Source of the DNA: a virus
Taxonomy: Duplodnaviria; Caudoviricetes
Strand: one strand, 5' to 3'
IMG/VR virus record: IMGVR_UViG_3300020198_000018
Coordinates: 1-57,895 of that record
DNA: 57,895 bases
Below, in pieces: positions 40,177 to 51,834 of this stretch (its first letter is position 1; every line of letters begins with the position of its first letter). Below the pieces are notes generated by a model. It did no database searches. It had not been told where the DNA came from and was given only the letters and a program-made list of their open reading frames with translations. The position numbers were made by a program, and so were the translations under genes.

Positions 40177-40515
40177 ATGAATTCAGGATATATCCTTGGT
40201 ATTAGCAGAGGACACAATGCAGGAGTCTGCTTATTAAAAGATGGTGAAATAATTTTTGCCATAGAAGAAGAAAGATTAAGTAGACATAAATATGATGGGG
40301 GTCCATATGCCGCCATGTTAAAAGTGTTGGAGTATACCGATAAATTAGATTATATCGTTGTTTCTCATACACAAAGTTTAGCTGAAACTTGCGGTAAAGT
40401 AGATTACACGGGTGATTTTATTTATACCGGGTTAGCTAGAAAACTAGGGCTGATTGACCGCAAACAAGATCTAAATGAACACCCACAAGTTATTGATCTT
40501 AGTAAACATCACCAC
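40177..40515 (+). pseudogene. Carbamoyltransferase copy 1, 5' fragment (113 aa)
   Basis: ILGISRGHNAG...EEERLSRHK...DLSKHHH; similarity to the paralog stops at 40515 and a stop follows at 40533. Confidence 0.9.
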
Positions 40516-40581
40516 GTTTTGTGGTATATATAATATATAATACGTGATAAACTGATAGAATTTATTTTTAATGGAGATAAA

Positions 40582-41538
40582 ATGGATACCACGAAACGAA
40601 GCAGCGCTTTCTTTATTAATGGTGGCAGCGGTAGAGTAATATCATCAATTCCCGCTTTAGAATTATATCATAAAGAAAATCCAGACGACGATTTTATAAT
40701 CGTCTGCGAAAGCGGAATGGATGTCTTTAGAGGACATCCAGTTCTACATCCACGCGCATTCGAGCCTGATCATAAAGGTCTTTTCGAATCACATATCAAA
40801 AATAGAAATTGTGTTACTCCAGAACCATATAGAGTTTGGGAATACTATAATCAACTATGTAGCATTGCTCAAGCATTTGATATAGAGATAAACAAAAAGG
40901 GCTTAAGAGATGTTCAAAAGCCAAACTTATATCTTTCAGGATTTGAGACAAACGGTGCATTCATAACTGTGCGCGAAATGAAAGAAAAACTCAACGTTGA
41001 AAAAATCATAGTATTTCAGCCGTTCGGTAGATCGACGATGACTCCGAATGGATTCCCGTACGATAACTCTGGAAGAAGCTTTGACACGTTCGATGCAGCA
41101 GACATTATAAAAAGACTTCAGAAGAAAAAAATAGGCGTTATACTTATGTCGGAATTTCCAGTTCCGTTCAATGATTTAGGTTGTGAACAACCAGTGCCAA
41201 AGCCAGATAATGCTTCTATCAGACAATGGATGGGATTTATTTCTGCGGCTGATCATTTCTTAGGGTGCGATTCAGTTGGCCAGCATATAGCCTACGCGTT
41301 AGATAAACCTTCAACAGTCGTGTTAGGATCGACGTTTGCGATTAATGTTTCTTATCCTAATAAAAAGAATGTTAACATTATCGACGTAGATAAAGATACA
41401 AGAAGATATTCTGCTATTCGTCTTGCTGTGGATGATGAAGTAGATAGAGTAAACGATGGTTGTATGAAAATCAATAAGAACGATAAAATCATTAATGATA
41501 TTGTAAAATCAGTTTGTAATTCAATTGGAGTTAAGTAA
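40582..41538 (+). CDS. GT9-like glycosyltransferase, copy 2
   Basis: Paralog of 39150 (FINGGSGRV, PEPYR, FQPFG, FLGCDSVGQH). Confidence 0.65.
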   Translation: MDTTKRSSAFFINGGSGRVISSIPALELYHKENPDDDFIIVCESGMDVFRGHPVLHPRAFEPDHKGLFESHIKNRNCVTPEPYRVWEYYNQLCSIAQAFDIEINKKGLRDVQKPNLYLSGFETNGAFITVREMKEKLNVEKIIVFQPFGRSTMTPNGFPYDNSGRSFDTFDAADIIKRLQKKKIGVILMSEFPVPFNDLGCEQPVPKPDNASIRQWMGFISAADHFLGCDSVGQHIAYALDKPSTVVLGSTFAINVSYPNKKNVNIIDVDKDTRRYSAIRLAVDDEVDRVNDGCMKINKNDKIINDIVKSVCNSIGVK

Positions 41539-49587: not shown

Positions 49588-51039
49588 TTATTTTGTTACA
49601 TTTTTTATTTCAATTAATTTACCATATTCAGGTAAATACAAATATTCAATATCACTTTGATGTAGCGTCCATAATGCATCTTCTAGCGTTTCAACCAACG
49701 GTTCGCCGCCCAAATTAAATGAAGTATTGAACACAATTGGCGTTCCTGTTTGTGATTTAAATTCTTTGATCAATTTATAATACAATGGATTATCTTCTTT
49801 TGAGACTGTTTGAATACGACATGTTCCGTCAACATGAATAATCGATGGGATTCGTTCTTCTACTCCAGGTTGACAATTTACAGCATACATCATATGCGGG
49901 GTATTTTCCATTCCTCTCAAATCAAACCATTCATGAACATCTTCTTCAAGGATACTCCCAGCAAATGGTCTAAAGTATTCTCTACGTTTCACTGCATTAA
50001 CATAATCTTTTCCGTCTTCAAATCTAGGATCAAATAAGATCGACCGATTTCCCAATGCTCTCGGGCCATTTTCAGATCTACCTTGGAACAACGCAACAAT
50101 ATTTTTACTGGTTAATAATTTTACAACATCAGAATCAGATGCTTCTTTTACATTCGCATCATATTGTTCTGATAAATTAATGATGGTATCGTCATCATAA
50201 GTATAATTAGGACCTAGGTAAATATTGCTTGGGTGCTTGGTATCCGATTTAGTTAACATATGATAGAACAGTAATGCAACACCAATCGCAGTACCGCCAT
50301 CATTAGAAACTGGTTCTACGTACAGGTTAATACCTTCCTCATTTAATTTGTTAAGGTAGTAATAGTTCGCAACGCAGTTCAGACCATACCCACCCGATAC
50401 AACAACATTCTTATTACCAGTTAGCGCAGACGCAGATAAAATAAGATTTAATACTTGGTCTTGCGTTTGTGTTTGACACGCATATGCTAAATCTCTGCGA
50501 TTTTGCAGTTGCGTAACATCGCCAATGCTAAAGTCAGTTGTCAATTCAGAATATAAATGTTCATCGACTATCGCACCATTTGGATATGTAGGTACAATTA
50601 CATTTCTATCACTGATTGGAAACTTTGTATTGCTTGTAAATAATTTTGGAATGTTATCGTTCTCCTTTCCATACGGAAATAGCCCCATTGTTTTACCGGC
50701 TTCGATACCTTGGAACCCACAGTATTCCGTAACCGCTTCGTACACTTTTACAATTCCTGCATGACCCGAAATAAGAACAGTGTGGGTACCTTCTTCACCA
50801 ATTTGGGAACTATCTTCCTTCGTGTTAAAATAAGTTGTTATGGGAGAACGACACCCAAAATGTTTATATACTGTTTTAATATTGTCTGGGTACGAGCATT
50901 CAAAAATAGATTCGACTTCCCATAGCTTCAATGGTTCATTCCGAAATGTAGCATCGTTTGAGGTCCCAGCACCATCGACAATTACTGCAGCGGCAGAATC
51001 AAATCCACTTCTATAAAACGCTGCTGCAGCATGAATTTT
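49588..51039 (-). pseudogene. Carbamoyltransferase copy 1, 3' fragment (483 aa, no cognate start)
   Basis: Open frame from 51039: KIHAAAAFYRSG...IVDGAG...GPRALGNRS...NTSFN; continues the 40177-40515 fragment exactly. Confidence 0.9.
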
Positions 51040-51051
51040 TACGCATGAATA

Positions 51052-51834
51052 TTACATATATTTTGAAGATACGTCTTCAATTTCACCCCAAGTCCAGCCT
51101 TCAGTATCAAGCGCTAGTTCTCCATGATTGCCACCTTCAGTTACGTCGATTGCAGTTGGAGGAGTAATCATCCAATTCGGTACTTTTACAATTAGATCAT
51201 ATATTAGAACATCACATAATTCGCATACTTTTCTAAAAACTTCTTTTTCGGCTGCTCTAAATGATGATAATTCTTGTTGATATAACTCAAGATACTTTTG
51301 TCTATGCATCTTTATCTGGTTTATCATTACATCATCATTTAACCAATCTCCAAGATCTTCATCAGTTGCGTAGCGAATGAAATTTATAGTTCCATCAACG
51401 TTGACGGTTGTGCCATTTATGCTAAAAGTATGAGTAGTGTCATCATACTTTGGTTTAGTGCGTCTAAATAAAAATGTTGAGCCATCTTCAAAGGTGTGTG
51501 TTCTAAATACTAATGTTTTTCTAAGTGCATCCTTAGTTGGATCATTAACATCAACTTTTTCAGAGATCATGTCCATTAAAATAACATGATCATCATTCTG
51601 TTGATCTAACATTACATAATTAGTTTCATCTCCTTCGATTGACGGAATCTGCGGTAATTCGATAGTTCCATCTTCAGCCGCGATTGGATAATGAGCAACA
51701 GTAAATTTACCAGTGTCAGCATCAACCTTAATCAAAATCTTTTCAGGCCCAAGATATTGCGTTGTCACTTTAACTAATTTGCTATTTGCATCTAAATAAT
51801 TTACTCTTGTCTTATATGTAAAACTTCTAGCCAT
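51052..51834 (-). CDS. Hypothetical, putative fibre assembly partner
   Basis: SD GAGG; N-terminus (SFTYK...QYLGPEKILIK) resembles the 47828 protein; follows a Cys-rich gene. Confidence 0.6.
   Translation of the reverse strand: MARSFTYKTRVNYLDANSKLVKVTTQYLGPEKILIKVDADTGKFTVAHYPIAAEDGTIELPQIPSIEGDETNYVMLDQQNDDHVILMDMISEKVDVNDPTKDALRKTLVFRTHTFEDGSTFLFRRTKPKYDDTTHTFSINGTTVNVDGTINFIRYATDEDLGDWLNDDVMINQIKMHRQKYLELYQQELSSFRAAEKEVFRKVCELCDVLIYDLIVKVPNWMITPPTAIDVTEGGNHGELALDTEGWTWGEIEDVSSKYM

Follow-up and report, generated by a model that had tools for sequence, protein, structure and literature searches.

In a large uncultured freshwater T4-like phage, an inversion, probably recent and one-off, splits one of the two carbamoyltransferase genes

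T4-type phages undergo homology-independent (illegitimate) recombination, which includes topoisomerase-mediated exchange and template switching and can be exact. Intragenic invertons are defined by flanking inverted repeats, and their inversion is enzyme-mediated and reversible. According to the accessible part of PMC10028968, the intragenic invertons of gut bacteria have an inversion breakpoint within a coding sequence. The accessible text of bioRxiv 10.64898/2026.02.14.705889 covers the invertible segments of phages Mu (G, with Gin) and P1 (C, with Cin), in which a block of several kb beside tail-fibre genes takes two orientations, and describes an invertible region of approximately 30 kb in Anabaena cyanophages, which is bounded by inverted repeats, occurs as both isomers in every stock and has an orientation independent of phylogeny. 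Multiple carbamoyltransferase copies, as well as lipopolysaccharide-type gene clusters elsewhere in the genome, have already been described for large cyanomyoviruses (PMC3037559, in the part accessible). In the present study we analysed IMG/VR record IMGVR_UViG_3300020198_000018, a viral contig of 57,895 bases (Duplodnaviria; Caudoviricetes), the whole of which is referred to below as the window. It is a fragment of a large uncultured freshwater T4-like myophage, with a full genome of approximately 340 kb by the CheckV estimate (completeness 17%). One of its two carbamoyltransferase genes (copy 1) is split by a 10.5-kb inverted segment, and the other (copy 2) is intact.

The inverted block resembles the Mu and P1 segments in its location, its length of several kb and its two orientations. 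However, those segments have inverted-repeat sites and a serine invertase beside them, and they supply tail-fibre proteins with alternative in-frame C-termini; the window has none of these, and one of its states merely breaks an enzyme gene. The likeness to the Anabaena system, as far as its accessible description extends, is that both concern freshwater phages whose close relatives differ in the orientation of a large block, but the block in the window lacks inverted repeats, occurs in one state per run among the contigs listed, and has a state that is linked to single-nucleotide polymorphisms (SNPs). A breakpoint within a coding sequence is shared with the intragenic invertons, whereas the inverted repeats that characterize these were tested for at this locus and not found. 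As in T4-type illegitimate recombination, a T4-like genome is rearranged here reciprocally and without homology, although the 4-nt topoisomerase stagger alone fails to predict the junctions. The enzyme belongs to the same two-domain NodU/CmcH/TobZ family, and lies in the same neighbourhood, as the several carbamoyltransferases reported for phage S-SSM7 in the accessible part of PMC3037559, and differs in that copy 1 is split by an inversion. In this neighbourhood a tail-fibre gene is succeeded by an upstream neighbour gene and this in turn by the carbamoyltransferase. We consider it probable that a recent, most likely one-off, homology-independent inversion left copy 1 as a pseudogene in two pieces, and copy 2 intact, in the strain that dominates the source sample.

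Copy 1, a NodU/TobZ-type gene, is present as 113 codons on the plus strand (40177-40515) and 483 codons on the minus strand (51039-49588), i.e. 113 + 483 = 596 codons in all. The plus-strand frame 40165-40533 reads ...HPQVIDLSKHHH up to position 40515 and then VLWYI and a stop, while the minus-strand frame from 51051 reads YSCV and then KIHAAAAFYRSG... as far as the stop at 49588. The 3' piece contains no in-frame ATG or GTG ahead of a TTG at 50931; a 447-aa open reading frame annotated in it carries PF02543 and PF16861 (precomputed annotation). The six-frame search of the record with the paralog (copy 2) as query hit exactly three places, namely the paralog itself, one match of 81% (residues 3-116) and one of 67% (residues 111-594), and neither piece contains an internal stop in this comparison. 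In alignment the two pieces abut without any missing or extra column relative to the 596-aa ortholog P0005, to P0006 and P0007, and to copy 2; P0005 is 89% identical to the 3' piece. The break divides the HHxxH motif between its histidines. This motif aligns with PHHRAH of 7xb6 and PHHLAH of 9s2t, both solved carbamoyltransferases, and is kept in P0005-P0007; we take its histidines to be metal ligands of the Kae1-like domain, as in the work on TobZ. The original prediction, made from the letters of the sequence, had placed the split inside HHxxH at 40515 (plus) and 51039 (minus), which proved exact to the base. It had also held that the pieces rejoin into 596 aa with no base gained or lost, which the alignment and the joints in other samples (see below) bear out for the genic junction, and it had correctly given the paralog as 594 aa reading DLSFQHHKIHAACAFY. 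Copy 1 is not a single contiguous frame in the window, where its parts lie on two strands 10.5 kb apart, but it is contiguous at the junction in two other lake samples.

The 3' piece shares its frame with the upstream 260-aa gene, from which it is separated by a TAA and four codons (YSCV); the chance of such agreement is one in three. A protein search with the 118-aa stub (the 5' piece with its tail) found no near-identical partial protein. The best match was 83%, which indicates that the intact form of the window strain is not in the collection searched. N-terminal carbamoyltransferase fragments of 100-107 aa (P0203, P0212 and P0230) were recorded on contigs of 255,768, 324,908 and 61,977 nt, respectively; they stop within about 20 residues upstream of HHxxH and may be other interrupted copies or merely genes truncated by contig ends.

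Both orientations of the block were detected in lake samples. Sampled words of positions 41200-51199 occur in nine runs, each labelled as a lake water metagenome, and the Logan contigs of the probable source run (X1) and of three other lake runs (X2, X3 and X4) were compared with the window. In X1 two contigs carry the present form with 0 differences from the window, one of 24,250 nt covering 38500-47895 and the other of 4,159 nt covering 49527-53000; these contigs, a second assembly, bridge both present junctions at a depth of approximately 20x, and the intact joint was found in 0 of the 9 X1 records compared. The intact form was found in X2, as a 691-nt contig (depth 5.3) of which 625 nt lie on 39891-40515 at 99.7% identity and the remaining 66 nt run from 51039 downward on the opposite strand, and in X3, where a second contig has the same 40515-51039 joint with a far side of 30 nt. 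The joints in both runs have no letters between their two sides and no ambiguous letter (0 in each case). Since its near side is 99.7% identical to the window, the X2 contig represents the same phage lineage rather than the paralog (74% between copies 1 and 2 at the DNA level) or the 89% ortholog. The inversion is thus a real strain-level polymorphism among near-identical strains.

The intact X2 contig differs from the window by 40212 A>T and 40326 G>A, and the latter change was found in X3 and X4 too. A single orientation per run was observed among the contigs listed, the junction-spanning contig of each state bridging that state alone; contigs hide minor variants, and the listing covers 8 of the 38 pieces from X2. 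No match to the 30 nt that end at 40515 was found in the viral and metagenome contig collections, which may omit near-identical records. Two further joints, 39452-50598 (X3, with a 20-nt side) and 41670-41841 (X2, with a 24-nt side), were dismissed as cross-matches with short sides. Other variation was also recorded in these runs. Two 112-nt contig alleles at 49445-49556 in X1 (depth 17.9 and 6.2; 7 differences), covering the final part of the 353-aa gene together with the terminator's left arm, reveal the presence of a second strain in the source sample. One of two X2 contigs has more than 30 differences in 85 nt of the 3' piece of copy 1 (49990-50074) and is otherwise near-identical, which looks like gene conversion or recombination from another carbamoyltransferase.

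Judged by sequence comparison, the intact state is ancestral; this rests on the full-length 596-aa ortholog, the unsplit condition of the related genes examined, and the co-directional gene order in relatives. Each of the 38 related genes examined in IMG/VR loci continues unbroken through the motif (0/38 split); 3 of the 38 were flagged by the adjacency test and have a divergent stretch of approximately 97 nt on the same strand. The tail fibre, upstream neighbour and carbamoyltransferase genes are co-directional in S-SSM7 and in all four printed loci with a tail-fibre match (L005, L007, L027 and L028); the upstream neighbour is GT9-like in these four and a T4-GC 302 gene in S-SSM7. Flipping 40516-51039 recreates the order of the relatives on the minus strand, terminating at the hairpin at 49549-49577. 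The original prediction had held that flipping restores a single minus-strand operon that stops at the 49549 terminator, and had recommended a comparison of synteny in relatives; the co-directional gene string obtained by the flip agrees with the relatives, and the hairpin itself was recovered with its 13-pair stem (7 G-C). The window and X2 differ by about a dozen listed single-letter changes over 14.5 kb outside one 85-nt patch (16 further rows lie beyond those), and so few differences imply a very young inversion. After so young an event stop-free halves are expected by default and carry no information on reversibility. Of the earlier view that stop-free halves make the event recent or reversible, "recent" therefore stands, by virtue of the few differences from X2, and "reversible" is not supported. 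In phage S-RIM44 (L078, NC_047734.1, 2986-4607) a carbamoyltransferase appears as two same-strand reading frames of 546 and 1014 nt, which is another kind of break.

The searches for a programmed switch gave negative results within their reach. Region 39000-52500 contains no long inverted repeats besides the arms of the two paralogs, and of the inverted local matches between the junction regions the best is an AT run of 12 nt, equalled by 7.7% of 300 shuffles. The two crossover sites have zero letters in common. Serine and tyrosine invertases require identical cores, so the usual chemistry of either type is ruled out. Resolvase (PF00239), Phage_integrase and the IS110 DEDD domain (DEDD_Tnp_IS110, PF01548) gave 0 matches in the window at E <= 1, the window representing 17% of the genome, and Resolvase and Phage_integrase were likewise absent from all five related records of 122-238 kb (0/5), one of which is rated complete. 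The locus consequently shows neither the inverted-repeat sites with an identical core and the nearby Resolvase-family gene (window and five relatives) of a Gin/Cin/Hin-type segment, nor the flanking inverted repeats and Phage_integrase-family recombinase of a tyrosine-type inverton, nor, in the window, the DEDD recombinase or a core dinucleotide common to both sites expected of an IS110/bridge-RNA system. No Rfam intron or other RNA family exceeded the threshold in 38000-53000, and there is no room for intein halves, with a tail of 5 residues after the 5' piece and 4 codons ahead of the 3' piece. Repeat and domain searches thus upheld the earlier remark that no long inverted repeat and no invertase is visible in the window, and the recommended search for serine, tyrosine and IS110 recombinases found none in the window, nor any serine or tyrosine type in the five related records.

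The off state of copy 1, which was correctly recognized in the original prediction, yields no new reading frame: it provides a 5-aa tail and a 3' piece that is devoid of ATG or GTG before TTG at 50931. Copy 2 is intact in either state and carries with it, within the block, an AT-rich upstream region of 66 nt. Since in the other state it would also run in the same direction as the late tail-fibre genes, nothing makes copy 2 orientation-dependent, and either/or logic between the copies is not apparent. The proposed either/or switch is accordingly not upheld, given the intact copy 2 with its own upstream region, the zero shared letters at the crossover, the lack of a recombinase in the window or (serine and tyrosine types) in five related records, the single state per run among the contigs listed and the SNP-linked intact form.

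Several short motifs were identified at the breakpoints. Assuming a simple flip, the pre-inversion sites share ACCACAAAA in the same orientation, spanning the break at the gene and ending 1 nt ahead of the break at the other site, and ATTCATGC in opposite orientations, starting 3 nt past each break. The present left junction has a 5+5 dyad (ACCAC-N5-GTGGT), and the right one has a direct repeat of GCATGAAT, 14 nt from start to start. Among 20000 random breakpoint pairs in the window, a direct match of at least 9 occurred in 130, an inverted match of at least 8 in 289, and both together in 4, in a post hoc test devised after the data had been seen. The window shows no enrichment of the dyad pattern (3 matches, with 1.14 expected; 8 of 100 shuffles reach that number). 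A weak 50-nt alignment between the inferred intergenic junction and the motif region of copy 2, centred on both sites, was equalled by 13% of shuffles. Possible readings of the motifs include a motif-directed nuclease or topoisomerase-like cut, templated repair insertions, a relic of an older rearrangement, and chance. Three mechanisms were worked out by hand, namely a 4-nt topoisomerase stagger, the filling-in of staggered cuts and template switching primed by microhomology, and all need extra assumptions to predict the junctions. Homologous recombination between the inverted paralogs is ruled out, as the junction links copy 1 to intergenic DNA rather than to copy 2.

The probable course of events would be as follows. 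In the lineage dominating the source sample, segment 40516-51039 would have been cut out and rejoined back to front without sequence homology, one cut falling inside copy 1, between the HHxxH histidines, and the other in the spacer of 78 nt (12 + 66 nt) that separated GT9-like gene 'b' from the 260-aa gene at 51052. Copy 1 would have been left as the 118-aa stub and a 483-codon piece lacking a start codon. Copy 2 and eight other genes of the block would have stayed intact with their own upstream region, now pointing away from the tail-fibre operon that formerly preceded them. The event most probably occurred once; copy 1 would no longer be functional, and copy 2 may make its loss tolerable. 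Several observations weigh against this one-off event. A genic junction exact to the base is unusual for random breakage and rejoining, and this exactness covers the genic junction only, as the reciprocal intergenic junction of the intact form is not among the joints listed. The 9-mer (direct) and the 8-mer (inverted) lie beside both breakpoints, a coincidence matched on both counts by only 4 of the 20000 random pairs, and one that may reflect a directed cut or some templated process. As contigs drop minor variants and the X2 listing covers 8 of 38 pieces, a minority of the other orientation could be present in any run; with 17% of the genome in hand, a recombinase or nuclease could be encoded elsewhere. 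Finally, the block adjoins tail-fibre genes, the classical site of phage invertible segments. The exact genic junction, the recurring motifs, the location and the 17% of the genome in hand, together with the left-junction dyad and the occurrence of both orientations among near-identical genomes, would suit a programmed reversible switch, in which a dedicated enzyme, encoded elsewhere in the approximately 340-kb genome or by the host, flips the block, toggles copy 1 and alters which promoter drives the block. We regard such a switch as unlikely, considering the lack of an inverted repeat, a shared core letter and any recombinase of the types sought in the window or (serine and tyrosine types) in five related records, the single SNP-linked state per run among the contigs listed, the unproductive off state beside an ever-intact copy 2, the absence of any split among the 38 related genes, and the unenriched dyad. 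More doubtful still is a motif-directed, homology-independent enzyme that would recognize the ACCACAAAA/ATTCATGC pair, cut with a 5-nt offset and flip the block on purpose. If real, it would amount to an inversion system without inverted repeats, and to a lytic jumbo T4-like phage with a phase-variable carbamoyltransferase and two glycan-modification states near its tail-fibre genes.

That the flipped arrangement exists in no real phage genome, being an assembly or library artefact, is very improbable. The window is indeed a metagenome assembly, and the X1 Logan contigs may derive from the same reads, but two assemblers agree on both junctions with 0 differences at approximately 20x depth, neither junction has a repeat of k-mer length that could mislead a graph assembler, and chimeric reads would not give a clean reciprocal pair of junctions. 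Equally hard to credit is a split gene that still works through trans-spliced intron halves, a split intein or the assembly of two polypeptides. Both pieces are stop-free, and the upstream gene and the 3' piece share a frame in which one TAA alone stands between them as a stop; yet no intron family was detected in 38000-53000, intein halves would not fit, the 3' piece lacks an in-frame ATG or GTG before the TTG, the cut parts two histidines aligned with the conserved HHxxH of solved carbamoyltransferases, and the sister strains are contiguous at this site.

Under the preferred reading, a one-off inversion, the locus would provide a clean, dated natural example of change in the variable glycan/tail-fibre region of large T4-like phages, with the before and after states both caught in lake samples a handful of SNPs apart. 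One of the two paralogous carbamoyltransferases would be dispensable for a strain that reached approximately 20x depth. The exact, repeat-free junctions with their short recurring motifs make this a tractable case for homology-free reciprocal rearrangement in T4-type phages. If the inversion were reversible, it would represent a new kind of inversion system, which the present evidence does not favour.

The features of the locus are collected in Table 1. In the block region a two-gene module, in which a carbamoyltransferase follows a GT9-like gene, is present in two old copies; GT9-like genes 'a' and 'b' are 41% identical. Copy 2 scores 93.7 bits for PF02543 and 194.1 bits for PF16861, both over the cut-off, and reads DLSFQHHKIHAACAFY at the motif region. 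The reverse complement of the 9-mer ACCACAAAA lies at 40517-40525, inside the 66-nt AT-rich region. The rest of the block consists of a radical SAM/SPASM gene and six genes of unknown function, several of which are mutually paralogous. Exact TATAAATA late-promoter boxes are present at 46790 and, beginning at 55938, directly upstream of the tail-fibre gene. No relative of the 260-aa gene at 51052 was found in the viral contig collection. Paralog pairs occur inside and outside the block: 37566-39050 with 52912-55938, 46824-47813 with 48476-49537 (phrog_35878), and 47804-48466 with 51052-51834 (phrog_9740). The 494-aa protein encoded at 37566-39050 and the tail-fibre protein have a common C-terminal module, phrog_31104.

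Table 1. Coordinates of the inverted segment, the carbamoyltransferase pieces and the surrounding features in the window.
Feature	Position	Strand	Remarks
Inverted segment	40516..51039		10,524 bp
5' fragment of copy 1	40177..40515	+	113 codons, ends ...DLSKHHH; ATG at 40177 with GGAG upstream
Out-of-gene tail VLWYI + stop	40516..40533	+	flipped intergenic DNA; left breakpoint between 40515 and 40516
3' fragment of copy 1	49588..51039	-	483 codons, starts KIHAAAAFY, codon AAA at 51039, stop at 49588
Spacer	51040..51051	-	12 nt; right breakpoint between 51039 and 51040
GT9-like gene 'a', 341 aa, heads module 1	39150..40175	+	phrog_8954, E 8e-134; weak Glyco_transf_9 and heptosyltransferase matches below cut-off
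AT-rich region upstream of GT9-like gene 'b'	40516..40581	+	66 nt, two TATAAT boxes; travels with the segment
GT9-like gene 'b', 318 aa, heads module 2	40582..41538	+	phrog_8954, E 1.7e-123
Carbamoyltransferase copy 2, intact, 594 aa	41538..43322	+	Carbam_trans_N and Carbam_trans_C over cut-off
Two genes of unknown function, 312 and 337 aa	43327..45271	+	no Pfam or NCBIfam family; one weak PHROG match only
Radical SAM/SPASM protein, 341 aa	45273..46298	+	PF04055, PF13186; NCBIfam matches below cut-offs
Four genes: 133 aa, unknown; 329 aa and 353 aa, paralogs (phrog_35878); 220 aa (phrog_9740)	46413..49537	+	
Hairpin terminator between convergent genes, inside the segment	49549..49577	+	13-pair stem, 7 G-C, T run
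260-aa gene, last before the right breakpoint	51052..51834	-	phrog_9740, paralog of 47804-48466
Tail-fibre protein, 1008 aa	52912..55938	-	three CBM_5_12 stretches; TATAAATA abuts the start

The window also encodes a gp15 tail-sheath stabilizer of the T4 type and a gp13-like adaptor, as well as further virion proteins and the 1008-aa tail-fibre protein with its three CBM_5_12 stretches. The nearest cultured relatives of the carbamoyltransferase are those of marine cyanomyoviruses (e.g. S-SSM7, 59%), and megablast of 39000-52000 against GenBank phages gave no match. The gp13-like adaptor gene (32646-33413) lies on the minus strand, whereas the genes for a gp14-like protein, gp15 and a Nudix protein (33475-36814) are on the plus strand, with minus-strand genes on both sides. 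In S-SSM7, unlike in the window, the genes for gp13, gp14 and gp15 are co-directional. Region 33475-36814 may be a second, older inverted block of approximately 3.4 kb.

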